Virus record (IMG/VR): IMGVR_UViG_3300012943_000009
Location: 1 to 51,980 of that record
Reading direction: 5' to 3' (one strand)
Length of the DNA: 51,980 bases
Source of the DNA: a virus
Lineage: Duplodnaviria > Caudoviricetes
In this document: in pieces, positions 309 through 51,980 of the stretch
How positions within the stretch are numbered: the stretch's first letter is position 1
Layout: each line of letters begins with the position of its first letter
Notes under the pieces: generated by a model
The model's database searches: none
What the model was told of the DNA's origin: nothing
What the model saw: the letters and a program-made list of their open reading frames with translations, nothing else
Program-made: the position numbers and the translations under genes

Positions 309-422
309 TCACAGTGGAACTAGCAGAGGGTAGAAAGTCCGTATCGTGGACCAGACGCCCAGCTTATGGGCGGTTATACGTAACCGGCGGTAACGATGCG
401 CCCTGATTTGCAGGGCTGCAAA

Positions 423-1250
423 CTATTCGGACTCGGCGAGGCCTTGCAGGTAGGCGTTGGTGTATTGCCCATTCTGCTTGACCTTGACGATGACCTCGGG
501 ATTCTCCGCGGCCACGTCCTCGAAGATTTCCTCGAGGTCAGCGAGCAGGACGTCCTCGTAGCCGAGGACATCCAAGTCACCCTTGAGGAACGGAATGCCG
601 GGACCGGCTTCGCCGTCGTCGTCGCAGATTTGATACCACTGGCTGATGGTCTTGCCAGCGACACCTTCGTCTTCGTCTTCGTGACCCTCGTAGGTAACCT
701 TCACCTTGAGAGCACCTTGCTCTTCGTCCTCACCGGCGATTTCGCCTTCGAGTTCGTAGCCGCGGACGAGCATCTTGAAGTCGCCAGCAGGCATGAGGCC
801 GCGGCCGGGCTTGGTGGAGTCGAAGATATCGGCGAGGGAGCGCTTCTTCTTGCCCTTCGCCTTCTTCTTCTTGCTGCCCTTGCGAGGAGCAGGAGCTTCC
901 TCCTCCTCTTCTTCGTCCTCTTCGGGTTCATCTTCCGACACGTCGGCTTCGTCCTCGTCGGGTTCGTCCTCGTCAACGTCGGCTTCGTTGTCCTCGTCGA
1001 CCTCTTCGTCTTCGTCTTCGTCTTCGTCAACGGGAGCAGGAGCGGGCTTCTTCTTCTTCGCGGCGGCGGCGGCCTCCAAGAGGCGAGCTTTGCGCTGTTT
1101 CGGAGTTTCCACTTCCTCCTCCTCCTCCTCTTCGTCCTCGTCGACCTCTTCGGGTTCGACTTCACGAGCACGCTTCTTGAGCTTGGAAGAAGCCGGGGCC
1201 GGTGCCTTGGTATAAGGCTTCAGTTTGGTAACGGGCTTTTTAATGGCCAT
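423..1250 (-). CDS. Probable single-stranded DNA-binding protein (OB-fold C-terminus) with a long charged N-terminal low-complexity region
   Basis: C-terminal MPAGDFKMLV...LKVKVTY...GKTISQWY...VIVKVKQNGQYTNAY resembles phage SSB/DUF669-type proteins; directly downstream of the Sak4-like gene. Confidence 0.65.
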   Translation of the reverse strand: MAIKKPVTKLKPYTKAPAPASSKLKKRAREVEPEEVDEDEEEEEEEVETPKQRKARLLEAAAAAKKKKPAPAPVDEDEDEDEEVDEDNEADVDEDEPDEDEADVSEDEPEEDEEEEEEAPAPRKGSKKKKAKGKKKRSLADIFDSTKPGRGLMPAGDFKMLVRGYELEGEIAGEDEEQGALKVKVTYEGHEDEDEGVAGKTISQWYQICDDDGEAGPGIPFLKGDLDVLGYEDVLLADLEEIFEDVAAENPEVIVKVKQNGQYTNAYLQGLAESE

Positions 1251-1320
1251 ATGTTTTGGTGTCTAAGTTCCCTGTGGTTTGTTTGCTTGCAGCTTAGCAG
1301 TAATTTGCAGGGCTGCAAAA

Positions 1321-2226: not shown

Positions 2227-2255
2227 AATGTGATTTTGCAGGGCTGCAAAAAGGG

Positions 2256-3242
2256 TTAAGCTAGTTCGACGTGTTTGGTTTCGCGGCGGGTGTAATTGTG
2301 ACCATCACGCAGGTAGCCGTGTTTGCAGATGGAGAGGAACTGACAGGTCGATCCATACTTCACACAAGTGTGAGTATTTTGGTTTCGAGCCAATGCTTCT
2401 ACTATATTAGCAGGTGTGGCAGCTTGTGTCAATAGCTTGATCCGTTCCACCTTAGGGATCAGGACACGTTGCTCGAAGTGTTCCATCGAGTTCTTGATCA
2501 TCGGCAAGGGGTGACGCTGGAAATACTTCAACGGCTCTTGAATCATGGCCTGACGAACACGGACCATGAACGATGCAACGCTTTCGTTCTTGCCCAGCCG
2601 CAACTGTGGCTTGCGGATACCGTTCACGAGGAACTTGTCGATCTTGATCTTCTTCGCCTTCTGCACAAGCCAGATGTAGAACATGAACTGGAAGCGGAAG
2701 TTCCAACCCTCGTAGTCATCAAGGCCATACGTCTTATGATCGTCGAGCACGTTGCCCTTCACGCCATCGACACAGTGACCCACGTCGATCTTGCCCTTGA
2801 GCTTCACGTCTCTGAATGTGAACTCGACTGTCTCTTCGACAGCCCACGTGGACCATGTAGCCAGATCGTCAGCATAGAACTGGAAGTATTGCTCCATCTG
2901 CACTTGCAAGATGCCTTGCCACATGTCCCGCTCCTGCTCTTGTTGGCTGGTGAGGATAGTGCCTTCCGGAAATTGCAGGGCTGCAATTTTCTCCGTGCCG
3001 TCTCGATAGAAGTCAGCGAGAGTCTCATGCACAGCATCGCCATACACGAAGTGCCACTCGAAGCCACCCTTCTTCTCCAGTCGTTGGTTGTAGCTGAGAT
3101 ACCACTTCTCTGCACAGTCGTCCCACGTGCCAATCTCTGACTGTGTGAAGCCTTCCTTGAACGTCTGCGGAAGCAGGACGGTGTGATTGTCAGCAGGCAG
3201 CAGCAGCTTAGGGCTGCGCTTCTCAATAGGTAGGAGTGCCAT
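2256..3242 (-). CDS. PD-(D/E)xK exonuclease (Cas4/RecB-like)
   Basis: S..WDDC..KWY, GDAVHE, EE, GKID, DHKT and C-terminal C..C.F..IC; start placed at ATG 3242 just after the upstream stop. Confidence 0.85.
   Translation of the reverse strand: MALLPIEKRSPKLLLPADNHTVLLPQTFKEGFTQSEIGTWDDCAEKWYLSYNQRLEKKGGFEWHFVYGDAVHETLADFYRDGTEKIAALQFPEGTILTSQQEQERDMWQGILQVQMEQYFQFYADDLATWSTWAVEETVEFTFRDVKLKGKIDVGHCVDGVKGNVLDDHKTYGLDDYEGWNFRFQFMFYIWLVQKAKKIKIDKFLVNGIRKPQLRLGKNESVASFMVRVRQAMIQEPLKYFQRHPLPMIKNSMEHFEQRVLIPKVERIKLLTQAATPANIVEALARNQNTHTCVKYGSTCQFLSICKHGYLRDGHNYTRRETKHVELA
2404..2432 (-). promoter_or_regulatory. Internal sigma70-type promoter
   Basis: TTGACA-N17-TAATAT on the minus strand inside the nuclease gene, pointing at Sak4/SSB. 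Confidence 0.6.
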
Positions 3243-3243
3243 G

Positions 3244-4026
3244 TTAGTGCTTCTTGCGGCTGCGTTTGCGTTTGCCATTGCCCGGTCCTTTGCTTGGCGG
3301 AGCCTCGGGTTGCTTTGGCTTAGGCTCAGGGTCAGGCATCCTTTCCTTTCGGAGAACGAGCGGCGGAACCTCAGGTCCACCGTCAATGACTGTTACCTCT
3401 GTCGTTGCAGGAGGCACGACTTGCAGACCTGCAATTCCGAACAACGGAGGCACAGGTGCAGAAGGATGCTCTTCTGGAGGCGGAGTAAACTCCATCACTT
3501 TGGGCTCTTCCGGTTCACCACGCTTCGCAGCAAGCGTAGCCTGCCGCACACGGAGTTCACCAATCCAGTTGCTCGTCCATTGCATGCAAGAGATAACCAA
3601 GCACGCCACTCGCAGGAGAGATTCCTGAAAGGAAACGGGGTGTAGAATCGCTTGAGCACACTCACGAATCTGGAGCATGACCTGTTCGATCAGTTCACGC
3701 GGATCGCCAGCACCCATCATCTCCCACATGAGTTTGCCCTCGAACTCTGGCGATGCTTCCTGTCGGAGCAACTCCCGTTCGATAGCCATGTAGTAGTCCT
3801 CACGACCTGATGAGAGGGGAAAGACTGCGAAGTTGCTGGCCTCTGATAGGTTAGCTAACTCCAGCGCCTTCCAGATAGCTTGTTCGAGTGTCATCGTAGC
3901 GATCGGCCCGAGAGGAATGTCGATTCCGCTGGGCTTTCGCACCACGAATGTGGGCTGTGTGTCTTTGTCACCTGCCACCTGAATGTCGAGGACGGTAGCG
4001 AGAGCTTGAGAGAGTTGAAGTTTCAC
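3244..4026 (-). CDS. Hypothetical protein with a possible degenerate MazG-like helical segment
   Basis: Coupled ORF; AIERELLRQE...ESLLRVACLVISCMQW weakly resembles phage MazG-like proteins; Pro-rich tail. Confidence 0.5.
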   Translation of the reverse strand: MKLQLSQALATVLDIQVAGDKDTQPTFVVRKPSGIDIPLGPIATMTLEQAIWKALELANLSEASNFAVFPLSSGREDYYMAIERELLRQEASPEFEGKLMWEMMGAGDPRELIEQVMLQIRECAQAILHPVSFQESLLRVACLVISCMQWTSNWIGELRVRQATLAAKRGEPEEPKVMEFTPPPEEHPSAPVPPLFGIAGLQVVPPATTEVTVIDGGPEVPPLVLRKERMPDPEPKPKQPEAPPSKGPGNGKRKRSRKKH

Positions 4027-4568
4027 GATTGTTTGAAGAGGCTGAGGAGGAGTTCGTATTCCGATGTATTGATAGACGCAGGGTTGAGCATGGCTCGAGT
4101 GATCAGGCCATTCTCTAACTCTGAGAACTGTGCAGCACTACTATGCAGACGGCTGGCAATCTCAGTCATGACCACTGCTTGAGCAGGGGTAATCGTTTTT
4201 GCAGGGCTGCAAAAGTTTTCGACCTGACCGCTACCTACCGTTTCGCCGGTGCTTTTCATCGGCAGGTCAGGCTGCGCAGGAAGCGGAGCGAGTTCGCCAG
4301 CGATGCCAGCATACCCACCGATATCGACGTAATTGTCAGCGTGAGTGGGGTTGAGGGCGATGCGCGCTACCTTCTGGAGGACGCACATCACAGCCACATC
4401 ATGTGGCATCAGTGGACCTTGAGGGTGAACGGACAGGTAGTTTGTCCACAGCGCGGCGATCAACTCATGTGATACATGAGGGTCGCCGTATTCTTCTTGG
4501 CGCGAGCCGGTGATTTTGGTGATGGCATCCGTGAGGATGTCAGCGCGATTATGGGTGGATGCTTTCAT
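4023..4568 (-). CDS. DUF6378-like phage protein
   Basis: IL..A...ITG.RQ.EYGDP...IA.LW..YL...DVA.M..L.KVAR...H.DNYVDI.GYA signature. Confidence 0.8.
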   Translation of the reverse strand: MKASTHNRADILTDAITKITGSRQEEYGDPHVSHELIAALWTNYLSVHPQGPLMPHDVAVMCVLQKVARIALNPTHADNYVDIGGYAGIAGELAPLPAQPDLPMKSTGETVGSGQVENFCSPAKTITPAQAVVMTEIASRLHSSAAQFSELENGLITRAMLNPASINTSEYELLLSLFKQS

Positions 4569-4891
4569 GCGATTACAATGCGGCCGATGTTGAGTTCGAT
4601 AGAGACTTGGCCAAATTCATCTACCTCGGTGGTGTTTTCGATCGCCTCTTTGAGAGGGATCATGATGGAGTTGAAGATCGAAGAAAACGATTTGTTCACA
4701 CGAGGATCATTGCACCAGTTACGGATCACGAAGTATGCTCCTTCGATTTCACCTATACGTGGGCGGAAGCCTGTGTATGTGTTCTCTTGGTTGATTTTAC
4801 GACCTCGGTTAAAGGCACGGACGAGTTCGCCCGACCCCCAACCTTTGCCCGATCTTGTTTTAGGTGGTGTTATTTTGGTTGTTGTGCTCAT
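4565..4891 (-). CDS. Hypothetical protein
   Basis: Overlapping start/stop with both neighbours. Confidence 0.65.
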   Translation of the reverse strand: MSTTTKITPPKTRSGKGWGSGELVRAFNRGRKINQENTYTGFRPRIGEIEGAYFVIRNWCNDPRVNKSFSSIFNSIMIPLKEAIENTTEVDEFGQVSIELNIGRIVIA

Positions 4892-6297
4892 GTTGATTTG
4901 ATCCAGTCGGCTACGCCTTCGGTGATAAGTTTGCGTTCATCACGGCCAGAAGCCAATGTCGTGCGATAGACATGGGAATCCAACGACCCAGCCACTTGGA
5001 GATACTTGTAGAAACACGTAGAATGTTGCGAAGCCCGTCCCCGATCGGTCCGTCCGCGGGACTGCTGCATATCAAGCCATTTGAAATTAGATGAATAGTA
5101 AATGGCGTAAGGAGTGTTTGCGAAATGATTGACTGACGACCCGCTCGCTTCTGTTGCCAGACATACACGAGCGTCACCGCGGCGCCAAGCGTCCAAGTCA
5201 AAAGGGTGTCCAGATAACATTTGCAGGACTGCAAATGGAGCATGGCGAGCGAGCATCTTAACATCATGACGGAACGCACACCATACGACGACCGAGTGTC
5301 CGGCAGTAACAATGTCGGAGACTTCATCCCACAGCTTTTCAGCTTTATTGCTTGGGACAGGGCGATAGATTCCCTCGTCAGTCTTGATCCAACCATCTGC
5401 AATCTGTTGAGCCTTAACGCTAATGACGATAGCGTGATCATACTCCAGATCAAGCTCTTCAATCGAGTAGAATTCTTTGAGTTCATGGAAGTATTGAAGT
5501 TGCTTAGGAGTTGGTTCAATCGTGTGGAACTGTTCGTGTATGAGACGGTCGCCTTCGGGAAAGTGAATAGAGGCAACCTCACGTAGGGAACGCATGATCT
5601 TCTTGTAGCTACCTTTACGCGGGACGGTGCGAGGAAAGTGTTCATTGCCTATTTGGATGGACTTCTGATAGAGAGAGCGGAACTTGGTTAGGGATGGGGC
5701 TAGGAATCTGTGTTTCTGCACAGCGGATGCTTGGTTATACACTTCGCATGTATCTCGTGCCTTCATGATGGTGCCACTTAACCCAGCGGAGAAGCGGTTA
5801 CGTGTCAGCAAGTGAGCACACTTGGATCGTTCGGACTTGTTATTTGCATACATCCACAGTTCGTCGATCACTACGAAGCGGATCATTGGGTTGTTTTGCA
5901 GGGCTGCAAAACGCTGATTGCGGGTGGTCTTTCCTTTGCGCTTGCGACCACGGGCCATGTCGCCTGCGCTGATCAACAGGAAGACGGGCTTGCGACCGGG
6001 AGGGTGAACGGGTATGTCGTTAGTGTAGACTGAGGGTTTGTAAAAGCAGCGACGGATTTCCTCTTCCCAATCTTGGAAGGCAGACTTGCGGCACACCACC
6101 AAGCAGATGCTCGGCAATGCCCAGCGATATGCATTTTGCAGGGCTGCAAAAAGGAACAATGCGATGCGAGTCTTACCCTCGCCCACCTTCCACCACACGA
6201 TGCCTCCTCGTGAGCGCGTGAGCTTACGAACAGCATCATGCTGCTGCGGAAACAGAAAGCGCTCTGCGTATTTAGCGTAGAGGGGGTAACGATTCAT
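4888..6297 (-). CDS. SF2 (SNF2-like) helicase/ATPase
   Basis: LFPQQ, VGEGKT, VIDE, LSGT, VVWC.F and QQSRGRTDR motifs. Confidence 0.85.
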   Translation of the reverse strand: MNRYPLYAKYAERFLFPQQHDAVRKLTRSRGGIVWWKVGEGKTRIALFLFAALQNAYRWALPSICLVVCRKSAFQDWEEEIRRCFYKPSVYTNDIPVHPPGRKPVFLLISAGDMARGRKRKGKTTRNQRFAALQNNPMIRFVVIDELWMYANNKSERSKCAHLLTRNRFSAGLSGTIMKARDTCEVYNQASAVQKHRFLAPSLTKFRSLYQKSIQIGNEHFPRTVPRKGSYKKIMRSLREVASIHFPEGDRLIHEQFHTIEPTPKQLQYFHELKEFYSIEELDLEYDHAIVISVKAQQIADGWIKTDEGIYRPVPSNKAEKLWDEVSDIVTAGHSVVVWCAFRHDVKMLARHAPFAVLQMLSGHPFDLDAWRRGDARVCLATEASGSSVNHFANTPYAIYYSSNFKWLDMQQSRGRTDRGRASQHSTCFYKYLQVAGSLDSHVYRTTLASGRDERKLITEGVADWIKST

Positions 6298-6933: not shown

Positions 6934-7800
6934 TCAGCTAGCTTGGCCAGCAGCGATCAGTTTCTTGACTTGCTTGACCAGCCCGATGAACTCGGGCAGC
7001 CGCTTGTGTTTGATGGCGTGGCTCGCCTCATGGACGATGGAGTTCTCGATTGCCCGTCCTGAGACTTCGAACTCGGACAGCTTCTCGCATTGCGCCGTCG
7101 TGAGTTGCATCGGGAACCGCTTGGGAATCTTACATTGCCACAAGCGGACTCGCTCAGCATAGCCCGGCATTCCGATTTGCAGGGCTGCAAAACACCGACT
7201 CTTTAATGCGGGGTCGATGATATCCTCGCGGTTCGTAGCTGCCACGACCAAGCCCGGATACTTAGCAACCTGCATGAGGATTTCGTCGATGACACCGACC
7301 ATCCACATCGAGTCAGAACCCGCACGGCCACGGTCCCACACGACAGCCTCACACTCGTCCATGAATACGGTTTTCATTCCGTTCAACCGAGCTTGAGTGA
7401 ATGTCTCGTGCACCATGCGTTCTGTATGACCGGGAGCTTTACCTCCCACGTCCTTCATGTTCAGCGTGTCCATGCCACGGCCACAACGCTTGCTCATATA
7501 CTCCGCGATCTTGGTCTTACCTGTGCCCGGAGGCCCATAGAGCAGGACCATGTTGCCTTGCTTGCGGATCGTGTCCATGCCCCACTCAACCCACCGTTGC
7601 TTGTTGGTGAACTGTGCGAGGGCAGCCTCGACCTCGTCCTCGATTTCCGGGGACATGATGGGCTTGTTTGCTATCGTTATTTTTACTTTGCTCATTTTGC
7701 GTATGCGATCGTTAATTTTTACTAGGATTTGCAGGGCTGCAAATTCTGCAGCTTCACTGGAGTCAGGTTTCACAGACCGTTCTCTATTTCTTACTTTCAT
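6934..7800 (-). CDS. Classic AAA+ ATPase
   Basis: GPPGTGKT, VFMDECE and second region of homology AATNREDIIDPALKSR. Confidence 0.9.
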   Translation of the reverse strand: MKVRNRERSVKPDSSEAAEFAALQILVKINDRIRKMSKVKITIANKPIMSPEIEDEVEAALAQFTNKQRWVEWGMDTIRKQGNMVLLYGPPGTGKTKIAEYMSKRCGRGMDTLNMKDVGGKAPGHTERMVHETFTQARLNGMKTVFMDECEAVVWDRGRAGSDSMWMVGVIDEILMQVAKYPGLVVAATNREDIIDPALKSRCFAALQIGMPGYAERVRLWQCKIPKRFPMQLTTAQCEKLSEFEVSGRAIENSIVHEASHAIKHKRLPEFIGLVKQVKKLIAAGQAS

Positions 7801-8218: not shown

Positions 8219-8303
8219 AAAGTTGGGTTTTGCAGGGCTGCAAAAGTGCGAAGAAGAGGGGCAGGACTCTGTGAAAGTCCCACCCCTCCCATCGCACCGC
8301 AAG

Positions 8304-8915: not shown

Positions 8916-9008
8916 ATGGCATTCTGTGGTTTTGTTTGGTTTGTGATTTTGCAGGGCTGCAAAACCGGAGTGGCTTTGCTCTTGGCCCTGTTTCAATCGT
9001 GAGTCTAA

Positions 9009-9037
9009 ATATTAACAGGTTATGTTGCTTAAGTCAA
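9009..9037 (-). promoter_or_regulatory. Sigma70-type promoter
   Basis: TTGACT-N17-TAATAT upstream of 8915, with a palindrome copy (8947) in the leader. Confidence 0.65.
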
Positions 9038-43400: not shown

Positions 43401-44772
43401 GGTCATGCGAAACTACATGCAGGCTCCTATAATGGGACTGATCGCACGCACGACCGCGGGCGATGTCGGGTCTGCGTGGAAAGAGATTCACTACACCAAA
43501 GGTGAGGACTACCGACTCATGCTGCGTAAGCATGTGATCGGTAGTGACTTCTCCACGCAAGAGTTGAGCAAGGGACCGGGCACAATCTTCTCAGGCCATA
43601 TGGACGCAGACATTGCGGTCAAAGCCGGAAAGGAAATTCATCGCGCTGTGCTCAAGGGCTACCAGCAGCCTGACATGATTATTCGTGCCGGTGCATTCAT
43701 TAGTGCTCGTAAGCGTTTCGCTCAACAGGCGTTGGAGAAGGGGATTGAAGTGATGGACGATCAAGGCGTTAAATCGGCACAGCATTTTGCAGACCTGCAA
43801 GAAGCGATGAAGCATGAAGGCGTCATCAACCAAGCAGTCGAGTTCACCAACCGTTACACGATGAACTACGCGACAGTGCCTGCCATCGTGAAGGCTGGGC
43901 GGCAGTTGCCCTTCATCAATCTGTATATCTCTTACACGTCGGAGATTACGCGCATCCTCAAGAACCTAACCGAGGACATGATTGCTCCCGGCCCGAACTC
44001 GGCTGGCCGTATGCACGCGATCACTACGCTGGCTGCGATGGCAGCGATCCCCACGATCATGACGATGGGCGGAAGGTCTATGCTCAGTGACCGCGACCGG
44101 AAAGATTGGGACCAAGTCGAAGCGCTCTCGCCCGGCTACAATCGCTCGCGCTTCCGCATACCTTACAAGCGCGAGGCTGACGGACGGTTTCGTTACTTCG
44201 ACATCACGAATCTACTGCCTGCCGATAACTTCTCACAGATGACGAAAGCGTTGGTGCAGGGAGATAACGCAGCATTCTGGAGCGCCAACCCGCTTGTCTC
44301 GATGCAGAACACTCCTTTGCTCAACATGGCTACGGAGCAGATCACGGGCAAGGATATGCGGACAGAGCAGTCTATTGAAGGCTTTGGCCGCGTGCGAGAG
44401 ATTCTGAAAGAAGTGTTGCCTCCTATCCTGCCTCCCGGCTACGAGGGTCAGCGGTTGCAGCGCGCCTTCTCCACGAATGTGGAAGGGACCGCAGGTCTGA
44501 CCAACATGCGAACTGGCGTGCAGTATCGCCCCTCGGACATTGTCGCGAACTACCTGACGGGCATGCGCTTCGGCAACGTCATGCTCTCGACTATGCAGAA
44601 GGGAGCAATCTCGGAGGCCAAGCAGCAGATCGCCGAGCAGCAACAGTTGATGCGCGAGACGACCAACATGAATGCAGGTCCCGCTGCCGCGCAACATGCG
44701 ACGGAGATTTACAACAAGGCCGTCGAGCAGATCATGCTCCAGCTGCACAGCAAGATGCCCAGCACGCAGTAG
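37423..44772 (+). CDS. Giant polyvalent internal virion protein (ART-like module, HExxH zincin motif, membrane-type segments, LPD38-like C-terminus)
   Basis: 2449 aa; MYRG...QYFISS..FAKTY...LNLKNP...GHDSVV; LGHEVTH; GxxxG-rich hydrophobic stretches. Confidence 0.7.
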   Translation: MWTQQDEARLQELQHSLGAGPQQVPAENPEGYGILGFSGRTAANILPGALEKLINIPEGILNMGVPEDYQSQLTTVPNFFDVRAPQSISEHIIGGAGEIAEYLPSIIATEGAAASGLARLGMAVPRTAEAIAAGARLAPTRAARIAASGIGQGLPMTPHGAETTMEQGGVGALQTAAMDWGWRGKAAASLIGGGIGYYQGAHGPDGTPLQGAIYGGLNALGPIAIDPLVNKLTGYKPGAKPGGDPIPGQPATPYGPAERPDILQTGRTGLPFGVDEAMADAQRTTGAGAPYDVFGGRVEPWSGLRRSTDQGPLQPGPNGLPFYEAPDTSGMSLRQDPAQTAAAAEMAAPSARVRRTDYPQANLMQRQLFPIQGEVGMGNLFGGLDPRIENIAQSPYGNATSPYDIFAGLQTEFLSPAERAHFRDGPPAKTRTQETLRLPDPNSTPSASGLRLTDRPAPEPGIPFLSDTTPSGMKLWTDPLSPNERATQRGQVQVWNNPDQSAPYVQGVSPHPGLNFGLMGTGSEFAYGRGTDPFDIFGARGVQPAPIMSQGETFAKGGLFPQAPLSPGEQVAISGHRAGRDVPVPQMPERKPTPVTSTPAGKGKIAALQNVFTPQGKPFKAKPTGKPRIVASAVRDNATGKIVTGAVWNDMHKSVKEQNKMAHLFDVGDDAQEATHGFIVEDEAGNIRPEFDRDAAGVIADAARQRDTEYGGYRLQSEHLRNPTKPVEPAPAAAGPAPHIAELEALKEAASLANTKHQNMWGAKADYPYKQRRKVRDEAYALNDKVDAMWEKHYGSRLTGRNEAGQTFSEWMTGITPEYKAMMKKIEAEEAARAAAPSLQKLEDAEIALNYMADKLFKMQHGKIKGATAKGIADHIAEVARLQKVYNDLREARYGKRDNVAPKAADVAPEPAPAAAGSMPVAGLQTPSGIAAHVSSIPMYRGVRGAHKGAGIKGPQYFISSESFAKTYGPTEAHTLNLKNPKIVSDAEWPAYSSNAFNPASEIAQKLIAEGHDSVVNIRKTTAGDMITTMVVDAEQALKSKVEPVVAPVKTNKAPTKADVAPEPALIKPDAVPEDGRPKVMVPSKLEGAWVEATVIGKDRDVLTVKVNDIHDPIYGDRTMDIAEKETRPFAALQKAAEGGGTVPFKDVESSPLTRKDAVKGENYGGAGDETMLGSVIESSGPAKTHKTLKGKAGTQKWVLGIKEALDLLPAEPRAILAEILHQVNVAVGRDMPIHFERDMQGAKGGSYTLSGRIGVNLHWLNQVVQDWEKMSPAKQADALMQATALLGHEVTHTVQRFAEQSGMAINGVPITDVIVASVNGMSLSSRKYVAEQILKAKGQKNASQRVIDYLSGDSAMIKKWYEQKRGPLSQAQVERLAAGEVMAEVGSIELVKRMKFDGLPQTFREAVDRFKQVLVNVTKWITGTSKDHDIAALQNLQSIASKMYDHFGAADEHGLAKAFQHSTQWKEAPTVNPFSSAAPKPPGTPGSTVTVPPDVEVLNGALLRHEILRLGVRGAVGGTIGAFAGPAIAPNQITTAEGILLGGIAGVFGVTVAKKLMSGNLAVEAAAALKAHPKNPLKALGHILGGGKSLQELGIEGRHGWNGIGSSMAKWVRQFEKDFDLNLDPKQKALFEDARGAGAEQIAIMTDAFDKTRWFKPNASMIEAVGHYLEGRISKDDYMRLLTTPEQQQYGNFIVTAREAMTNLSNMFADGLPNGAFKKHVMETSETYLGKFYTAYTDGKFKMEHFDAAKKDMMAKLNYSDQTADALMHEYMREVHANRKMFSTGRRGESGEKYDTSTLMRRMATEEEIQGQSMVVAGLEHDKHGTDYIREKAKLDWMEEHKITDNWRRWLGEVENPLQRMVYTIQKIHASAISGKAFDLLDTMTHTNGNKFSYTSKDILQARALLESEIAKATPDKIAGLQIRLRDLNGYGPLPQGAAYGKLSGKWVDRFTRDGINTYDSPYKWLEQPIIRSMAEFNNLIKIGHTAYNPLTVMRNYMQAPIMGLIARTTAGDVGSAWKEIHYTKGEDYRLMLRKHVIGSDFSTQELSKGPGTIFSGHMDADIAVKAGKEIHRAVLKGYQQPDMIIRAGAFISARKRFAQQALEKGIEVMDDQGVKSAQHFADLQEAMKHEGVINQAVEFTNRYTMNYATVPAIVKAGRQLPFINLYISYTSEITRILKNLTEDMIAPGPNSAGRMHAITTLAAMAAIPTIMTMGGRSMLSDRDRKDWDQVEALSPGYNRSRFRIPYKREADGRFRYFDITNLLPADNFSQMTKALVQGDNAAFWSANPLVSMQNTPLLNMATEQITGKDMRTEQSIEGFGRVREILKEVLPPILPPGYEGQRLQRAFSTNVEGTAGLTNMRTGVQYRPSDIVANYLTGMRFGNVMLSTMQKGAISEAKQQIAEQQQLMRETTNMNAGPAAAQHATEIYNKAVEQIMLQLHSKMPSTQ

Positions 44773-44790
44773 GTTTTGCAGGGCTGCAAA

Positions 44791-45057: not shown

Positions 45058-45079
45058 ATAGTTTTGCAGGGCTGCAAAA

Positions 45080-45607
45080 TCAGCACAGCCTGTGCTTCTT
45101 GCAATGGTAGACCAGCATCATCACCGCGTCGATGGTGTCGTGGTCGATCTTCATTTCGCTCAAGCCGAATAGCTTGAAGAAGCGGCGCGCTGTCACCACC
45201 TTCTTGACCGTGCCCTTCCAGTCAGGTGCCGTGTAGAGGAACAGCTTGCGGAAGTCCACTTGGAAGTAACCCGCGATATACATGGCGATGCCTGCGAGAT
45301 TGATCGTGTAGCCCTTGCGCGCTGCTGTCTTACCCTTGTCGCTGTCGTAGTAGGTAGGCCACTCCATCACTAGCACGTCGAAGGCGAAGCCAAGGCCGAT
45401 GATCCAATCCTTCAAGTCAGAGCAGCGCATCTGGAAGTTCATGCCGCTGACCTCGAAGCTGCCGAAGTCCCAATCATCCCGAATAACTTTTCCTTTCAGA
45501 TCGCGTTCGATCTCAACAACGGCCCAGCCGCATCTGTTCATGACTGATGGATCGAGGGCTAGGATACGGAGGATAGGCCCTTTGCAGGGCTGCAATTTCT
45601 TTTTCAT
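45080..45607 (-). CDS. RuvC-like Holliday junction resolvase
   Basis: RILALDPS...GWAV, LVME, WKG..KK and DTIDAV catalytic motifs. Confidence 0.85.
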   Translation of the reverse strand: MKKKLQPCKGPILRILALDPSVMNRCGWAVVEIERDLKGKVIRDDWDFGSFEVSGMNFQMRCSDLKDWIIGLGFAFDVLVMEWPTYYDSDKGKTAARKGYTINLAGIAMYIAGYFQVDFRKLFLYTAPDWKGTVKKVVTARRFFKLFGLSEMKIDHDTIDAVMMLVYHCKKHRLC

Positions 45608-45921
45608 TGGTAGTCTTTCCAGTCTGACCATAGGTCTACTTCACCTTGGCCGCGTGGGTCTTCATGTGGTTGAATCTGAACGGGTGGGATAGCATACTTG
45701 CGGCAGACCCAGCACCACTTAGTAGGGGCTACTTTGCAAGTGCACAAATTCTTGAGGGCACGACCGCTGGGCATATGGCGCATGGGAATGAAGTCATCCT
45801 TCATCCACTCTAGGGTGCGATCAGGCGCGACCCGTGCTTTCTTAGCTGATGCCCATGCGTTGGTTAGCTTTTTGCCTTTGGCTTTGGGCTTCTTGACGGG
45901 CTTTGGACGTTTTTTCATCAT
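45604..45921 (-). CDS. Basic hypothetical protein with CxC...CxxC
   Basis: Start MMKKRPK; overlaps the RuvC start. Confidence 0.55.
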   Translation of the reverse strand: MMKKRPKPVKKPKAKGKKLTNAWASAKKARVAPDRTLEWMKDDFIPMRHMPSGRALKNLCTCKVAPTKWCWVCRKYAIPPVQIQPHEDPRGQGEVDLWSDWKDYQ

Positions 45922-46047: not shown

Positions 46048-48093
46048 CTAGTTAAGGAACGAGAGGATGGTTTTCTCGTCGTCGATTTGGACCTCACGCG
46101 CTTCATGACAAGTGGTGCGAGAGAGATACATCTTGGCCCGGAGTGGAATGTCGTCGAATCGTGGAGAGAACCGACCCGTCATGTTCCACATCAGTTCTTG
46201 CAGGGCTGCAATTATAGGACCCTGTCCAAGAGAGAGCCGCAGTCGAAGACTGTTCTCGTCATGACAGGTTCCACACATGACCCCCGACTTATAGTGGGTG
46301 TGCTGCGGACTTCTATGTCCAGCTTGTCCCCGAACGGTCCCATCATATTTACGAAGCGTATCGTAATTTGCCCTGATCTGTGCCTTGGGAAGTGATCCCG
46401 TTCCGCACCCTTGAATAAGATATGCAACAACCTTATATGCTGCTCTAATGTTGCCCGTGTAGATATGTCCAAATGCGTCAGAAACATGACCGTATTTTGC
46501 AAGATCATCGGCCACTCGTCTTTGGAGTCGGTGGATGGCAGGACACGCATCGTGCACAAGTCCAAACATATGCGCCCCAGTGTCTGTATCAACTCCGCAA
46601 GACTTACAGAATTTGGCAATGCCCATACCGAAGTTAAGGGCGAGCTTAATGGTCTTGAACTGTTTGTAGATAGACCAATGAGGAACTTGGGGACTCTGAA
46701 TAGAGTCAAGCTCTTGTTTAGACCTCGTGCCTCCCAATATACGATTGCAAAGCCACACGTATTCATTCCAATTCGGGTCCGCTTCGTATGCCTCTCGTCG
46801 GAGATAGTCGTCGGATTCATAAATGTGGACGACGTTCTCTACCTGAGTTGAATCGATCCACACTCCGAGGTAGCCTCGCGGAACCAGTTGAACCTTTTTC
46901 GCTTCTTTGTCGGGGTTCTGAAAGTTAAGCTTATACTTAGAATTACTCGTGTAACGTCGGGTTCGGGCATTGGAGATAGAGACTTGTATAGGGATCCAGC
47001 CACGCCGTAGATGATCTTCGCAATGGTGTAGAGCTTCCAGATAGTTTTCATAGTATTTAAGGGACGAGTTTACTTTACGGGTTTCCCAAGTGCATTGTGC
47101 AATCGGGTCTTTGGCGAACGTGACCTTGCCTTTGTCATCAAACTCCAGCAAGTCCATCAGTTCTTCTTTGGACACAGAGAACTCACCACCAGCGGTGAGG
47201 TCTAGTTCAAATCCTTCGCTAGCGAGGTAGCGTCCTACCTGTATGGACGAGTTGGGGTTCTCCACTCGGCCGCCAGATAGTTTGTGGGCCTGCTGTCCCC
47301 AATACATTTTCCGATTTTGCAGGGCTGCAATTCTAGCTTCCAGATCGGCAGCGTTGAGGAACAGCCCGCCCTCGGTTTCCATTTCACGGACGGGTGCGCC
47401 CTGCGATATGTCGAGGCAGTAGGCACGCCAGTGAGCCTTGCGAATCACCACGTCCCAAAACAGCTGGAACATATGCTTGGTCTGTGTGATGTCCCACAGA
47501 GCATACTCGTCCATCAGCGGTCCGGTTACCTCCCACTTACTAACCCCTTCTTTCAGAGCGTAACGCTCCAACCGCATTTCTGGAAAGTGCGGGTCTGCGA
47601 AGTAATGCCAGTTGACAAATTTCAACGAGTAGCTCGCCAGATGCGGCGCAACCGCCTTACACGCAAGCATAAGGTCATGCGAGTTTTCCTCGCAGATAGG
47701 ATACCCATGCCGAGCCAGAACAATATCGTCGAACGACTTATTGTTCCAACCAAACTTGAGCACAGTAGGATCAGCAAGCATAGCACGGAAGGTGCAATGC
47801 TGTTGCTCGGATCGGACGACGTAAGGTATTCCATCAATGCCGACTTGAGCGACAATGAGTTTGAGCTTTGCATAAGGGGCGAACTGACAGTCCGTTTCTA
47901 TGTCGTAGAATAGAATCTTACTGTCCGGTATCTCCTCGATCGGTAGGCGGGTGTGGGCTATCTTGCTTAGGCCTCGCGGCCGCCCGCTGATAGAAGTCCT
48001 CGAGGGCTTGGAGGAAAACCCGCTGGGCGTATGCTTGCGTTGCAGACTTGCGGCCTTGCGGCGTATGGGAAGATTGGAGCGCACGGATTTCAT
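46048..48093 (-). CDS. Family A DNA polymerase with 3'-5' exonuclease
   Basis: Exonuclease motifs DIETD, NNKSFD, YALWD; polymerase motifs A (IDSTQVE), B (KTIKLALNFGMG), IQG and C (CHDE). Confidence 0.9.
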   Translation of the reverse strand: MKSVRSNLPIRRKAASLQRKHTPSGFSSKPSRTSISGRPRGLSKIAHTRLPIEEIPDSKILFYDIETDCQFAPYAKLKLIVAQVGIDGIPYVVRSEQQHCTFRAMLADPTVLKFGWNNKSFDDIVLARHGYPICEENSHDLMLACKAVAPHLASYSLKFVNWHYFADPHFPEMRLERYALKEGVSKWEVTGPLMDEYALWDITQTKHMFQLFWDVVIRKAHWRAYCLDISQGAPVREMETEGGLFLNAADLEARIAALQNRKMYWGQQAHKLSGGRVENPNSSIQVGRYLASEGFELDLTAGGEFSVSKEELMDLLEFDDKGKVTFAKDPIAQCTWETRKVNSSLKYYENYLEALHHCEDHLRRGWIPIQVSISNARTRRYTSNSKYKLNFQNPDKEAKKVQLVPRGYLGVWIDSTQVENVVHIYESDDYLRREAYEADPNWNEYVWLCNRILGGTRSKQELDSIQSPQVPHWSIYKQFKTIKLALNFGMGIAKFCKSCGVDTDTGAHMFGLVHDACPAIHRLQRRVADDLAKYGHVSDAFGHIYTGNIRAAYKVVAYLIQGCGTGSLPKAQIRANYDTLRKYDGTVRGQAGHRSPQHTHYKSGVMCGTCHDENSLRLRLSLGQGPIIAALQELMWNMTGRFSPRFDDIPLRAKMYLSRTTCHEAREVQIDDEKTILSFLN

Positions 48094-48321
48094 TTAGGAT
48101 TTGGTTGACGTTGCAGGTCCGGATGAGTTGGATGATTTCTTCGGGTGACATAATTCTTTGAATACAGTTTTTACTAGGGTATGGACAGGGTGGCTAGCGT
48201 TGAAGTTGATGCCCGTCACAATGTCAGCCACTCCTCTAGTGGTCAGCTTATATGCGGTCGTGCTGAGCATTGCGTTTACTCGGTTGGCTACTTTGCGGAA
48301 TGGATTAGACTGCGAAGTCAT
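48094..48321 (-). CDS. Hypothetical protein
   Basis: TAA directly abuts the polymerase ATG. Confidence 0.45.
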   Translation of the reverse strand: MTSQSNPFRKVANRVNAMLSTTAYKLTTRGVADIVTGINFNASHPVHTLVKTVFKELCHPKKSSNSSGPATSTKS

Positions 48322-48910
48322 AAGGTTTGATTTCGAGATTCACTTCGGGTTTAAGACCAGCTTCCTCCGCTGCCATCCAGATGACACGGAAGATCGAGCC
48401 TGCTTCGGACGGCTGCTCCTTGAGCACACCGGGTGACATGCCGATCCAGATGTGATCGACGTACTGCTTCATGATCGGACTGATAGGTTCCCAATCAGAA
48501 CCAGCACGCTTGCCCACTTCCTTCACCAGTGTGAATGTCTCACAGGCTAGAGATCCCAGCCCGACGATTGCTTTGATGTGAGGAAGTTTTTGCAGGGCTG
48601 CAAAACGGTATTGCGAACAAGCACGAACACACGCCATGCGGTTCTCTTTCTGACCGGGCATCTTACCGGGGCAGCACTTCACGATGTAGTCGAGGAACAC
48701 GTTGTCGAGCGACACACTCATGCGCTTGAGACAGAACTTCACGAACTCGGCGTTGTCTGACACGAATGATCGTCCCCGCCTATCATCTAGGAAAGATGGC
48801 GAGTCGAGATAGATCGCAAGCACAGCGTCCTGCGTCCCGAGGGATGGCAGGCAGCGATGCTTCGCGCGTTCGTGCAGCACACAATCGGTGCACTCTGTGT
48901 TCTCAAACAT
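48305..48910 (-). CDS. Uracil-DNA glycosylase family 4-like (Fe-S) protein
   Basis: CTDCVLH, GRSFV, VKCCP, ACSQY, IVGLGSLA; the motif A position reads YLDSPS instead of GEAPG. Confidence 0.75.
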   Translation of the reverse strand: MFENTECTDCVLHERAKHRCLPSLGTQDAVLAIYLDSPSFLDDRRGRSFVSDNAEFVKFCLKRMSVSLDNVFLDYIVKCCPGKMPGQKENRMACVRACSQYRFAALQKLPHIKAIVGLGSLACETFTLVKEVGKRAGSDWEPISPIMKQYVDHIWIGMSPGVLKEQPSEAGSIFRVIWMAAEEAGLKPEVNLEIKPYDFAV

Positions 48911-49160: not shown

Positions 49161-49166
49161 GATAAT

Positions 49167-49195
49167 AGTATACCACACGTTTCGATCTAAGTCAA
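49167..49195 (-). promoter_or_regulatory. Sigma70-type promoter, leaderless
   Basis: TTGACT-N17-TATACT with an extended TG, 6 nt before ATG 49160. Confidence 0.75.
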
Positions 49196-51980
49196 TCAGA
49201 CTCGATTGAACCACTCGTGCTTCCCGTGCCCGTTCGTGCCGTTCTTCTTGATCGCCTCCAGCGGTTCGTCTTTGAGATGAGTGAGCATCCAGTCGCGGCC
49301 GGCAGGTGTAATCTCCCACAGATTCGCATCGCCCTTGCGAAGCACTCGCTCTCGAACCATGACCCCGATGAACATGTCGGCTGCCGAGATTTGCAGGCCT
49401 GCAACAGCACACAATTCGTCTCGGTTGAACTTCGCTGCGTGGACCAAGGACTCCATGACCTTGCCCCGAGTGCGAGCGTTGCGCAGAACTTCTTTGAGCT
49501 TGAAGTCGAGAGCAGCTACGTCCTTCACCCCATCACGATCAAACATTTGACGCGACCACTCGTCGTAGCCGAATGAGGATTTGTTGTAAAGAAGCTCGAG
49601 AAACTTTCCGGCAGCGATGACGTGATCTTCAAGAACGAGCACCGCTTTACCATTCCAAGAGAATTGCAGGCATGCAATAGCGGCAGCCACTCGGGCCAGT
49701 TTGTAACGTCCAGAGCCGCCCTTAAATACGGGAACCGCAGGATGATATATCTCGGCGAGCCGTTTTGTTTCTTCGAGACAGGCGAGGTAGGCATCGGTTG
49801 TTATTTTAATTTGCTCGGGCTTAAGTGCCCAGATGAACTGACATAGGCGTTGGTAAATCTCAGGCACAATAGCGTTGTGCCCGATCTTGCGTCCGTCGAG
49901 TGGGCGATTGATTACTTCGTTGGAAACTTCGCGATCGACGAGTGTGCTGATAAGATCAAAGCGCGCAATGTCCTCCCCATGTCCGATAAGTTCTTGAACT
50001 GCTTTAACTCCAGAGAGATAGCCAGCGAGATTGCGATTGACGGGTCGGACATTTGAAAGTGCGAGGAGTCTAGTTCGAGCATTAGTCTCCGCACTAAGTC
50101 CCCCTTTGTCGAGACGCGCAACCCCACTGGAACGCACGTCGGACATATTGCTAATTTCTTCGACTGATAATCCAGAAAGCTCTTCGATGACCACCAACTG
50201 CTTATCAGAAAGGGGAATCCTTCCCCATCGCAGCATAAACTGGCCGCTACCCATCTTGACTGCTCCACCCACCAGTCCAACATAAGTGCAATTTTCGGCG
50301 TTGATGATGGCACCACTTCTAAAAAGTCGTTGGAAGGTTTGAGTGACTTTGGATTTTCCGGTTTGGGTATCTCCGATGACGAGGGAGTTAAGCCATCCGC
50401 GTTGTATTTCTTCTTCATAAGGGAACATCCACCCGATCGGGCTAAGCCATGTAAGCAGAGCTACAAGGTGCCAGTCAGGGCGGTTATATATTTTAGTGTA
50501 GTATTTGCTGACGTCTTCTGCTGCCTCCATCATTCTGTCCCACACTGTCTGTCTACCCTCTGGACGAAAGATTTGCAGGGCTGCAATTTCCTCTGCGGAG
50601 AATGTTGCTGTCTCCACTGCACGAGCGATAGGCACAGCTTTAACAATGATGCCAATAGTCTCTTGTGACCTTGCATCGGTTGTGGGAATGATTTCAAGTT
50701 CATACGGAATGTTTGCTTCGATGCGCTGACCGATGAAGTAGCAGCGTTGAGTGACGTAGGGCACGTCCTCGTTAATGGCAGCGGTAGGAATCACTTCCAC
50801 TTCTGCCGCGGTGATGAATGTGTCTGGCTCGACCTGCGCTTTCTCATCCTCAAGCAATTCACGCACGAGGAACTTAATGGCGTTGTCGCTGGAGTGAATG
50901 AACGAGAGCAACGTGCGCCCCATTGGCACAGCAAAATACTGCTGCGGTGCCTTCTGCTTCTTCACCTTGAACTTCCATGGAATCGAGTAGGTCTTAGTGC
51001 TCTTGGCAGCCACGATGCCCGTCGTCTTTACAATCTGATTGAGCATGTCGGGATTGTGCCCCACGTCCACCAGCTTCACTGGCTCATCAGAGAATACGCT
51101 CGGGAGCGCAGGGCTCTGAAAGGGAAGGGATTTACCTACTCGCTTCGCGAAGAACGGATCAACTACTTTCGTCTTCGAGCGGCGTCCCATTTCAGCCGCC
51201 TCTCCCCTTGCGTCAGATGCCTTTCGCTCCTTGTTAAACGCAGCCAGCAGATGTATGCCTTGCCCTCCCTCTTCGACAACGAAGTCAGCAAAATCTTTGA
51301 GCTTAGTTGGGGGTTCAATGATGCACGCATAGTTTGAAACTTTTTGCAGGGCTGCAAATCTCTTCCCCGCAGCTTGCCGCCCGATCTTGTCGCGTTGTGC
51401 CACGACGCAGATGTCGTAGCCGAGGAAGTAGTCATTCCACTCTTCGTTCCATGATTGCTCACCTGCCGTGGCACATACGCATTGCAGTCCCTCCTGCATC
51501 CCGATAACCATTTCCTTTTCAGAGGGCATCACGAACACTGGCTTGTCCAGCGTGAACTCTTGGAAGTGTGGCCACGAGAACAAGTCGTTGCCCCCATAGC
51601 GCACTTCCTCGGGAGTGTTGCGTCCCGAGACGTAGTTCAATACCTTGAATGCTTCGTCCGCCTTAGAGCGGAACCGAGGCGGGCGATATAGTCGGAGGTT
51701 GACGACCTGCTCCCAACGGTCGAAGATGGGAATGGCAAGGCGTCTTGAAGCGGAGTCCCAGCCAAGAGCAAACAGTTCGATGCCCTCATCTGTGATTCCA
51801 CACTCACCAGCCAGAATACCTCTAACCTTACGATCCGCTGCGAGAGTCTTTTGCAGCCCTGCAATAACCTTGTCCGGCACGATAGGTCGGATAAACTCTG
51901 CATATAGTTTTGAAGCCGCCTCAGCTTCGCTGACGTCCAGTTTCGCTGACTCAAAATGCACGATGTTGCCAAGAGCCTTA
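49196..51980 (-). CDS. Primase(TOPRIM)-MCM-family helicase fusion (continues from 308..1)
   Basis: RLAIPIFD primase segment and KDFADF; MCM-type LVIGDTQTGKS, GLVG, VIEE, ARTRLLALSN and ARFDL. Confidence 0.85.
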   Translation of the reverse strand, partial: KALGNIVHFESAKLDVSEAEAASKLYAEFIRPIVPDKVIAGLQKTLAADRKVRGILAGECGITDEGIELFALGWDSASRRLAIPIFDRWEQVVNLRLYRPPRFRSKADEAFKVLNYVSGRNTPEEVRYGGNDLFSWPHFQEFTLDKPVFVMPSEKEMVIGMQEGLQCVCATAGEQSWNEEWNDYFLGYDICVVAQRDKIGRQAAGKRFAALQKVSNYACIIEPPTKLKDFADFVVEEGGQGIHLLAAFNKERKASDARGEAAEMGRRSKTKVVDPFFAKRVGKSLPFQSPALPSVFSDEPVKLVDVGHNPDMLNQIVKTTGIVAAKSTKTYSIPWKFKVKKQKAPQQYFAVPMGRTLLSFIHSSDNAIKFLVRELLEDEKAQVEPDTFITAAEVEVIPTAAINEDVPYVTQRCYFIGQRIEANIPYELEIIPTTDARSQETIGIIVKAVPIARAVETATFSAEEIAALQIFRPEGRQTVWDRMMEAAEDVSKYYTKIYNRPDWHLVALLTWLSPIGWMFPYEEEIQRGWLNSLVIGDTQTGKSKVTQTFQRLFRSGAIINAENCTYVGLVGGAVKMGSGQFMLRWGRIPLSDKQLVVIEELSGLSVEEISNMSDVRSSGVARLDKGGLSAETNARTRLLALSNVRPVNRNLAGYLSGVKAVQELIGHGEDIARFDLISTLVDREVSNEVINRPLDGRKIGHNAIVPEIYQRLCQFIWALKPEQIKITTDAYLACLEETKRLAEIYHPAVPVFKGGSGRYKLARVAAAIACLQFSWNGKAVLVLEDHVIAAGKFLELLYNKSSFGYDEWSRQMFDRDGVKDVAALDFKLKEVLRNARTRGKVMESLVHAAKFNRDELCAVAGLQISAADMFIGVMVRERVLRKGDANLWEITPAGRDWMLTHLKDEPLEAIKKNGTNGHGKHEWFNRV

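Follow-up and report, generated by a model that had tools for sequence, protein, structure and literature searches.

What does a short palindrome do when a phage carries it at dozens of places, inside its genes as well as between them? The question is raised by the 51,980-nt window analysed here, positions 1 to 51,980 of IMG/VR record IMGVR_UViG_3300012943_000009 (Duplodnaviria; Caudoviricetes), which holds 69 exact copies of TTGCAG-NN-CTGCAA between 408 and 51864, the number given in the original prediction made from the sequence, against 0 in 100 dinucleotide-preserving shuffles. The mismatch spectrum is sharp, and the about eight near-matches of that prediction stand as a small set of variants, their count being corrected to 7 sites with one mismatch and 6 with two. 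In the extended consensus, ttTTGCAG-SS-CTGCAAaa, A/T flanks bring a 14-bp core to 18 bp, and both the arms of this inverted repeat and its flanks are symmetric; the spacer of the analysed phage is fixed as G-SS-C, and the central dinucleotide on the + strand is GG 38, CC 20, GC 5, AC 3, TC 2 and GA 1 times. The explanation we prefer, and to which we give about an even chance, is that a phage-encoded dimeric DNA-binding protein, whose binding and function we infer, uses the copies as a genome-wide lattice of sites.

The copies are real features of the genome. Bases 1–123 recur exactly as a direct repeat at 51858–51980, and this terminal repeat identifies the genome as complete or circularly assembled, with 51,857 unique bp that still contain all 69 copies. 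Logan contigs from one soil-metagenome run equal the genome over 10001–30000 with 0 differing letters at a depth of about 21; the run is probably the source sample and thus a second assembly and not independent DNA, but as a second assembler reproduces the sequence the copies are no artefact of a single assembly. One public run was found to contain the phage, as DNA contigs, with no RNA dataset among the holders listed. Within 10001–30000, five joints of the Logan contigs (e.g., 16352 to 18155 and 19928 to 21322) have both ends at motif copies, and with 20–24 matching letters on the shorter side these are repeat-induced and not rearrangements; private words of this kind mean repeat-induced false joints in assemblies. 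The 18-mer occurs once in each of two IMG/VR contigs and, among the matches listed for the 14-mer in genome and viral collections, 236 of 239 loci are single-copy and 3 double-copy, and these are taken as chance matches. A 2.2-kb contig of a Treponema metagenome-assembled genome (L060) has two 14-mer copies 126 bp apart (218–231 and 344–357) beside another short repeat, a pair that may be a coincidence or part of a local tandem repeat. None of the papers searched contains the exact words TTGCAACGTTGCAA, TTGCAGCCCTGCAA or TTGCAGGGCTGCAA, and, judged by titles and abstract openings, no published description of an evenly spaced palindrome lattice in phages was found.

We then asked at which level, nucleic acid or peptide, the word is maintained. 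A refined set of 49 open reading frames (ORFs), covering 88.5% of the genome and used for all coding and noncoding counts, contains 42 of the 69 copies and leaves 27 outside, close to the about 40 genic copies first claimed, and the genes named at that time do carry them: TerL 2, portal 1, PolA 2, ligase 1, SNF2 helicase 3 and primase-helicase 4. The sole comfortable reading frame of the motif gives [FLIV]-A-[VADEG]-L-Q, and of the 42 coding copies 37 use it and so spell [F/I/V]-A-x-L-Q, in keeping with the F/I-A-x-L-Q that had been reported for most. The claim that other frames occur holds for FCSPAK at 4199, VCSPAK at 16111, LQSCNF at 17882, LQGCKN at 18158 and LQPCKG at 45582, whereas the spellings given for 12805 and 17880 were inexact. 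The original prediction had placed selection on the nucleic acid and had proposed codon-preserving shuffles and homologue alignments as checks. Synonymous-codon shuffles within genes (n = 300) give a mean of 0.91 copies and a maximum of 4, against 42 observed, and eight protein alignments with relatives are free of gaps where the copies lie, which marks the copies as substitutions. The [FLIV]A[VADEG]LQ pentapeptide is itself about 86-fold in excess (37 observed vs 0.43 expected), and all 37 such pentapeptides are spelled as the motif. Excess and substitutions together mean that the phage changed its proteins to carry the word, and selection acts at the DNA level, as predicted. A protein motif is rejected, the enrichment surviving amino-acid-preserving shuffles and the peptide itself being in excess, and likewise a mobile mini-element resembling repetitive extragenic palindromic (REP) sequences, miniature inverted-repeat transposable elements (MITEs) or Rickettsia palindromic elements (RPEs), because the copies are not insertions relative to homologues.

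Placement along the genome is far from random. The gaps have a coefficient of variation (CV) of 0.503, where random placement gives 0.987, and are at most 1721 bp long, where 3625 bp would be expected, neither value being reached in 20,000 simulations; the mean spacing is about 750 bp, the smallest gap is 46 bp (17356 and 17402 copies), and every base lies within 860 bp of a copy. A copy is present in each of the 8 ORFs of at least 1300 nt and in 24 of the 32 junctions of at least 14 nt, where the copies typically lie 1–10 nt past a stop codon or just past a terminator and 2–30 nt ahead of the next ATG. Sigma70-like promoters (TTGACA-N17-TAnnnT) and G+C-rich intrinsic-terminator hairpins with T runs adjoin copies as separate elements, and the motif's own T run stands before its stem; with true promoters and terminators existing as distinct elements, the motif is ruled out as either. 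The 17356–17415 pair, situated in the region of arm divergence 40–90 bp upstream of the sigma70-like promoter of the first early gene, looks like an operator arrangement.

Related phages, in which the original prediction had suggested a search, share the same over-represented word class. The capsid protein has 214 homologues, many on contigs of 50–53 kb, and loci of relatives were taken from IMG/VR and JGI metagenomes (23 of 32 metagenome loci used, 9 shorter than 2.2 kb dropped). In 22 of the 23 loci the top inverted repeat is TTGCA-N4-TGCAA or TTGCA-N5-TGCAA, at 0.76–1.44 per kb, the single exception being a 2.6-kb piece. The arms are conserved across phages of 44–55% G+C, with the variant TTGTA/TACAA in one lineage, and the spacer is lineage-specific: ACGT in most lineages at 64–68% capsid identity, R-SS-Y in a lineage at 90% against the G-SS-C of the analysed phage, AGCT in one lineage, ACAC in another, and a free sequence of 5 bp in several lineages at 57–61%. 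The R-SS-Y lineage looks like an intermediate state in a change of specificity. Among distant loci, with capsids 22–29% identical, 0 of 73 have an inverted repeat of more than three copies. The near-complete relative G001 (50,619 bp) has 52 N5 sites with free spacer and 0 N4 sites, and its gaps show a CV of 0.52 and do not exceed 2070 bp. Over 15 orthologue pairs, 7 of 31 coding sites of the analysed phage align with a G001 site (0.59 expected; not reached in 5000 permutations), often frame-shifted in G001 by the extra spacer base, and aligned positions carry each lineage's own word, as with faalq, fatlq, fvtlq and vatlq in the 24077 gene. Such even spacing and conserved positions need selection.

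How, then, might the word be read? The left flank favours T and the right flank A, each independently of the other (32 of 69 copies have complementary bases at flank position 2 vs 31.0 expected), and within the genome there are no compensated arm variants, which argues for a specific sequence read as two half-sites and not for a mere stem. This half-site behaviour favours a dimeric protein on duplex DNA, and the dimeric reader of the original prediction fits it and the symmetry, as a predicted protein for which we can name candidates. The clade-shared core is the inverted repeat TTGCA/TGCAA with A/T flanks, its arms 4 or 5 bp apart by lineage; in the mechanism that we propose, a phage-encoded symmetric dimer would read the two half-sites on double-stranded phage DNA, and selection would keep a site within about 0.9 kb of every base, using gene junctions where present and elsewhere recoding proteins to F/I-A-A/G-L-Q. 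The protein, once bound or loaded, would act over about 1 kb around the site and so mark, coat, organise or globally regulate the phage chromosome. Its best candidate is the product of 8304–8915(−), with that of 11032–11670(+) second.

The 8304–8915 product has a lysine/alanine/acid-rich disordered N-terminus and an all-helical C-terminal domain, modelled at block-wise predicted local distance difference test (pLDDT) scores of 74–94 over residues 61–150 and 63–79 beyond. Its family comprises 54 homologues, on contigs up to about 53 kb, is without a Pfam family, and has 11 of its 16 invariant columns within residues 105–156; a homologue is present in 4 of 4 lineages whose early region was available (the analysed phage, L361, G001 and L363), and no longer, fused form was found. 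A homodimer model of residues 60–203 gives an ipSAE (interaction prediction score from aligned errors) of 0.58 against 0.01 for the best control and passes the mark set for a pair, which 20 of 30 proteins solved as pairs of one chain and 1 of 23 solved as single chains also reach. Three runs share at least 98% of contacts at pLDDT of at least 77, with residues 109–163 outside the interface. This model supports a symmetric dimer, not DNA binding. The weaker candidate, a 212-aa basic protein encoded on the strand opposite to its neighbours, is conserved in L361 and G001, and an IMG/VR search for its relatives returned none. Its family has weak helix-turn-helix matches in 6–7 of 31 members, its weak BFVD rows include three small terminases (E 0.4–1.4), and it could alternatively be a small terminase or regulator.

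Several observations weigh against a symmetric phage-borne dimer, and against the 8304–8915 product in particular. No helix-turn-helix, ParB or KorB family is detectable in this protein, PDB gives it no sequence or profile match, and it matches neither ParB nor KorB by fold or profile; ParB and KorB are likewise missing from 20 members of its family even at E ≤ 5. The ParB/KorB nature once proposed for it is not supported, and the paralogy proposed with 16404–17084 is not seen (BLASTP E = 1.8). PDB sequence and profile searches gave nothing significant (best E 0.83, 0.93, 0.079 and 0.15), neither candidate's model had a Foldseek match at E ≤ 0.001 in PDB or BFVD, and an Atlas search with the 8304–8915 product gave no usable match. 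Its co-occurrence with the lattice is no greater than for any core clade gene. The site itself is polar at its centre: on the sense strand the intergenic centres are CC 23, GG 1, GT 2 and GC 1 (about P = 0.004 against local base composition, by our own estimate), those of a relative CC 13, GC 6 and GG 0, and this polarity is unexplained by a perfectly symmetric reader. The orientation is carried by the central 2 bp only. Frame-1 coding copies on the sense strand are CC 15 vs GG 2 in the early arm and CC 6 vs GG 7 in the late arm; Ala versus Gly at the middle codon may explain part of this coding bias, but the intergenic bias stands. As transcription and possible bidirectional replication run in the same direction, the two are inseparable in this genome. 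Finally, the palindrome folds as a moderately stable hairpin, as RNA or single-stranded DNA (−3.5 to −9.6 kcal/mol), and a hairpin loop would accommodate a spacer change from 4 to 5 bp more easily than a rigid dimer would.

These last points lead to the main rival, that the copies are strand-specific hairpins with a 5–7 bp stem and a 4–5 nt loop, acting in single-stranded DNA at the fork, as a priming or loading signal for the phage primase-helicase at Okazaki-sized intervals, or in mRNA, as a tag for an RNA-binding protein. We judge this unlikely, though in its favour are loops of 4 or 5 nt on a conserved stem, the free loop sequence of the N5 lineage, the folding energies and the centre polarity, the sense strand being the lagging-strand template if forks run with transcription. 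The phage also encodes its own Toprim-like plus MCM-like primase-helicase, and the spacing, about 750 nt on average and 1.7 kb at its widest, is similar to Okazaki-fragment lengths. Toprim-type primases, however, are known to read trinucleotides. The stem has no covariation beyond its fixed arms, compensated stem variants are missing from the genome though their pairing would be equal, and the G and C that the analysed phage keeps invariant at positions 6 and 9 could not pair across a 2-nt loop; the near-equal CC and GG among late-arm frame-1 copies mean that orientation is not required there, and cutting or tight binding of mRNA inside 42 coding sites would be costly.

Quite unlikely, in our estimate, is that a host protein, a nucleoid-associated protein or CRP/FNR-like dimer, is recruited to or decoyed by the sites. 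Arms of 5 bp, TTG...CAA, around a 4-bp spacer are the architecture of many bacterial dimeric regulators, and a host reader would suit both the conservation of the arms over 44–55% G+C and the lack of a recognisable DNA-binding family at curated thresholds among 57 phage ORFs. Against it, spacer sequence and length differ between close lineages, which looks like co-evolution with a fast-evolving phage-borne partner, and a clade-restricted protein predicted to dimerise exists; among the matches listed from the genomes of 185,579 species, 117 stretches contain the word once and 3 contain it twice, so that no enrichment is seen, though this is weak evidence. Still less probable is a target for a phage enzyme, a nickase, endonuclease or base modifier, in which the nick or modification and not occupancy would act. 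The copies are strictly exact, the phage genes include those for a ligase and a PD-(D/E)XK nuclease and one with a weak RuvC-like resolvase match, and T5 and some Pseudomonas phages are known to have localised nicks at consensus sites; known nick systems, however, have few sites, on one strand only, and in the 57 ORFs scanned hidden Markov models (HMMs), whose silence is no proof, found no methyltransferase or other modification family, nor any integrase, ParA/ParB or repressor family. That the palindrome has no function, being a protein motif, a mobile mini-element, a product of biased repair, to which the iterated HIP1 palindromes of cyanobacteria have been ascribed, or an assembly artefact, is largely refuted and in our view very improbable: besides the shuffle and peptide results, the absence of insertions relative to homologues and the second assembly, it leaves the 27 copies outside ORFs, the even spacing and the conserved positions to be accounted for.

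Within the preferred explanation of a lattice read by a phage-encoded dimer, a more specific proposal, which we put forward as possible but doubtful, is a sequence-coded phage chromatin. The clade-specific dimer of 8304–8915, with its histone-H1-like charged tail, would load on the private word at least every 1.7 kb and coat, condense or label the chromosome as self, for instance distinguishing phage from host DNA in replication, packaging or protection. The need for the word would have to be strong enough to install 37 F/I-A-x-L-Q peptides in essential proteins, and the word would drift between lineages in step with its reader.

Both the stoperators and the dispersed palindromes invoked as analogues in the original prediction are apt comparisons. 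The nearest published description is that of the dyad repeats of Cluster O mycobacteriophages. As described in the portion of that report drawn on here, a 17-bp dyad, TGTTCGG-N3-CCGAACA, with invariant arms and a variable spacer occurs 34 times in Corndog; such dyads stand in short intergenic gaps and in genes at positions mostly shared by relatives, 10–11 of the Corndog sites are clearly internal, little evidence was seen of spacer orientation with transcription, the word is absent from the host genome, and the authors infer binding sites of a dimeric protein but no clear role in regulation (Cresawn et al. 2015, PMC4351075). The resemblance lies in invariant arms, a short variable spacer, dozens of copies in and between genes, and sharing by relatives. 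Sequence and phage lineage are unrelated, however; the density is higher, with 69 copies in 51.9 kb compared with 34 in Corndog, whose genome is about 70 kb, and 42 of the 69 lie inside ORFs, with 37 peptides rewritten, against 10–11 internal sites. Even spacing, the lineage shift of spacer length and polar intergenic copies likewise distinguish the present lattice from what that portion describes.

Cluster A stoperators, as far as the sections used cover them, number 20–30 sites genome-wide, mostly off promoters and oriented with transcription (Mavrich and Hatfull 2019, PMC6550527; PMC9283540); their consensus co-varies with phage lineage and reader, and they are asymmetric sites at which the monomeric repressor of a temperate phage blocks elongation (PMC6550527). 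Common to both systems are tens of dispersed sites separate from promoters and a word co-varying with lineage; polarity is seen here in intergenic and early-arm frame-1 copies but not in late-arm frame-1 copies. The present site is a near-palindrome in contrast to their asymmetric one, no integrase, partition or repressor family is found in the 57 ORFs, and here most sites are inside genes and evenly spaced. In KorB-OB of plasmid RK2, according to the part of the report used, KorB slides and acts up to 1.5 kb from its loading site (McLean et al. 2025, PMC11790492). That reach is close to the largest gaps here (1.7–2.1 kb), and KorB, ParB and Noc also use short dispersed palindromes read by a dimer, the 14-bp core falling within the 13–16 bp range of parS-type sites. 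RK2 has about a dozen sites, against 69 here. Membership of the ParB/KorB/Noc group is not supported: neither the ParB N-terminal CTPase domain nor a ParB/KorB DNA-binding family is detected in any of the 57 ORFs or in the 8304–8915 family, and the KorB likeness is one of working logic only.

The features of the genome are collected in Table 1. A leftward gene arm runs from about 17.4 kb through position 1 round to 44.8 kb, and a rightward arm from 17.8 to 44.8 kb. Products recognised in the leftward arm are a Sak4-like ATPase, PD-(D/E)XK nuclease, SNF2-like helicase, AAA ATPase, Cpn10-like protein, ATP-dependent ligase, UDG-like protein, family A polymerase and the primase-helicase, whose Toprim-like match is weak; those of the rightward arm are TerL, portal, capsid protein (Phage_capsid_4), an SU10-type adaptor and a 2449-aa ORF. 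This last, 37423–44772(+) in the virion module, is without a Pfam or PHROG family and is 25% identical to the matching G001 ORF over 984 residues. Megablast of 1–25000 and tblastn of the portal gave no similarity to cultured phages, and neither tRNA genes nor Rfam families were found in the genome. A possible replication origin is the A+T-rich stretch at 14400–14640, which is flanked by a terminator and a promoter and has an (AT)n core and recurring TATAGGTTA-like units. Around it, on the minus strand of 13200–16400, early genes have C/A-rich leaders, e.g., (CA)n right before the ATG, without Shine-Dalgarno sequence; a coding (CCAACA)n run at about 13430–13500 gives a (PT)n repeat, and the GC skew of the + strand over 13200–16400 is +0.285. 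Long Asp/Glu runs stand beside Lys-rich segments in three proteins, 423–1250(−), 16404–17084(−) and 17837–18715(+), the first of which, a neighbour of the Sak4-like gene, may be a single-strand-binding protein, a guess from position alone. A second dispersed word, cTGAAAGGAAAGGGAT, occurs 11 times (3626, 7855, 9504, 13136, 16236, 18895, 28733, 33745, 38820, 40988 and 45498), at 8 of the 11 places opposite the local transcription strand; at 28733 and 33745 the sense strand is a pyrimidine tract, CCCTTTCCTTTCAG, immediately before an ATG.

Table 1. Palindrome copies, candidate reader genes and further genes of the window
Feature	Position	Strand	Centre	Context	Peptide or remark
Copy	408–421		GG	inter-ORF	
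Copy	1305–1318		GG	inter-ORF	
Copy	2236–2249		GG	stop-to-next-ATG gap	
Copy	2973–2986		GG	PD-(D/E)XK nuclease ORF	IAALQF
Copy	3421–3434		AC	between refined ORFs	
Copy	4199–4212		GG	ORF 4023–4568(−)	FCSPAK, other frame
Copy	5221–5234		GA	SNF2-like helicase	FAVLQM
Copy	5896–5909		GG	SNF2-like helicase	FAALQN
Copy	6136–6149		GG	SNF2-like helicase	FAALQN; G001 site aligned
Copy	7177–7190		GG	AAA ATPase	FAALQI
Copy	7729–7742		GG	AAA ATPase	FAALQI
Copy	8230–8243		GG	between terminator-like hairpin and following ATG	
Copy	8949–8962		GG	leader of candidate reader gene 8304–8915	
Copy	9103–9116		GG	ORF 9034–9306(−)	IAALQK
Copy	10142–10155		GC	DNA ligase	FAGLQN
Copy	10748–10761		CC	ORF 10280–10810(−)	IAGLQN
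Copy	11429–11442		CC	ORF 11032–11670(+)	FAALQG
Copy	11928–11941		GG	ORF 11904–12173(−)	IAALQK
Copy	12807–12820		CC	between refined ORFs	sole intergenic copy with GG on presumed sense strand
Copy	13216–13229		GG	past stop codon	abuts sigma70-like −35/−10 pair
Copy	13978–13991		GG	ORF 13912–14391(−)	FAALQI
Copy	14269–14282		GG	ORF 13912–14391(−)	IAALQN
Copy	14639–14652		GG	right after intrinsic-terminator-like hairpin	
Copy	15347–15360		GG	stop TAA to next ATG	
Copy	15672–15685		GG	10 nt ahead of ATG	
Copy	16111–16124		GG	in or just before ORF 15848–16186(−)	VCSPAK, other frame
Copy	16330–16343		GG	right after intrinsic-terminator-like hairpin	
Copy	17356–17369		AC	divergent control region	upstream of early promoter-like site
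Copy	17402–17415		GG	46 bp from 17356 copy	
Copy	17882–17895		TC	long ORF 17837–18715(+), true start maybe later	LQSCNF
Copy	18158–18171		GG	ORF 17837–18715(+), true start maybe later	LQGCKN
Copy	18788–18801		CC	past hairpin, inter-ORF	
Copy	19300–19313		GG	TerL	FAGLQN
Copy	19912–19925		CC	TerL	FAALQK; relatives have own version at aligned position
Copy	21325–21338		CC	TerL stop to portal ATG	
Copy	22130–22143		TC	portal	FAVLQN; position common to L240, L243, G001
Copy	23667–23680		CC	after stop codon	ATG 2 nt downstream
Copy	23996–24009		CC	inter-ORF	
Copy	24276–24289		CC	ORF 24077–25033(+)	FAALQK; site also in 4 of 4 aligned relatives and G001
Copy	25568–25581		CC	stop-to-next-ATG gap	
Copy	26175–26188		GC	stop codon to capsid-gene ATG	
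Copy	27232–27245		CC	past terminator-like hairpin, ahead of ATG	
Copy	27732–27745		CC	past terminator-like hairpin, ahead of ATG	
Copy	28675–28688		CC	stop TAG to ATG	
Copy	29522–29535		GG	ORF 29395–30498(+)	FAGLQS; identical in L240
Copy	30928–30941		GG	ORF 30495–31541(+)	FAGLQI
Copy	31543–31556		CC	stop-to-next-ATG gap	
Copy	32065–32078		GG	ORF 31563–33731(+)	IAGLQN
Copy	33556–33569		CC	ORF 31563–33731(+)	FAALQN
Copy	35277–35290		GG	ORF 35195–36058(+)	FAGLQK
Copy	36060–36073		CC	stop-to-next-ATG gap	
Copy	37013–37026		GG	ORF 36085–37419(+)	FAGLQN
Copy	38639–38652		GG	2449-aa ORF	FAGLQT
Copy	39236–39249		CC	2449-aa ORF	IAALQN
Copy	40184–40197		GC	2449-aa ORF	VAGLQT
Copy	40811–40824		CC	2449-aa ORF	FAALQK
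Copy	41714–41727		CC	2449-aa ORF	IAALQN
Copy	43178–43191		GC	2449-aa ORF	IAGLQI
Copy	43787–43800		AC	2449-aa ORF	FADLQE
Copy	44776–44789		GG	exact convergence point of the two gene arms	
Copy	45064–45077		GG	stop TGA to next ATG	
Copy	45582–45595		GG	near start of RuvC-like ORF	LQPCKG, other frame
Copy	46198–46211		GG	PolA	IAALQE; G001 site aligned
Copy	47317–47330		GG	PolA	IAALQN; G001 site aligned
Copy	48590–48603		GG	UDG-like ORF	FAALQK
Copy	49391–49404		GC	primase-helicase	VAGLQI
Copy	50573–50586		GG	primase-helicase	IAALQI
Copy	51344–51357		GG	primase-helicase	FAALQK
Copy	51851–51864		CC	primase-helicase	IAGLQK; spans start of 123-bp terminal repeat
Candidate reader 1	8304–8915	−			203 aa; clade-restricted; predicted homodimer, putative binding
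Candidate reader 2 (weaker)	11032–11670	+			212-aa basic protein; strand opposite to neighbours
PD-(D/E)XK nuclease ORF	2256–3386	−			
SNF2-like helicase ORF	4888–6297	−			
AAA ATPase ORF	6934–7800	−			
DNA ligase ORF	9290–10207	−			
TerL	19272–21317	+			
Portal	21349–23664	+			
RuvC-like ORF	45080–45631	−			weak RuvC-like resolvase match
PolA	46048–48093	−			
UDG-like ORF	48305–48910	−			
Primase-helicase	49196–51961	−			

The private words can be used as clade markers. If its reader were confirmed, the lattice would be the densest known array of specific protein sites on a viral genome and a clear example of protein sequence giving way, at dozens of places, to a signal in the DNA. It would further reveal how 50–70 sites and their reader change specificity together, and would offer a tractable system for the marking or organisation of a whole chromosome by a phage, with a 14-bp word, more than 200 natural variants and natural spacer changes in relatives at hand.

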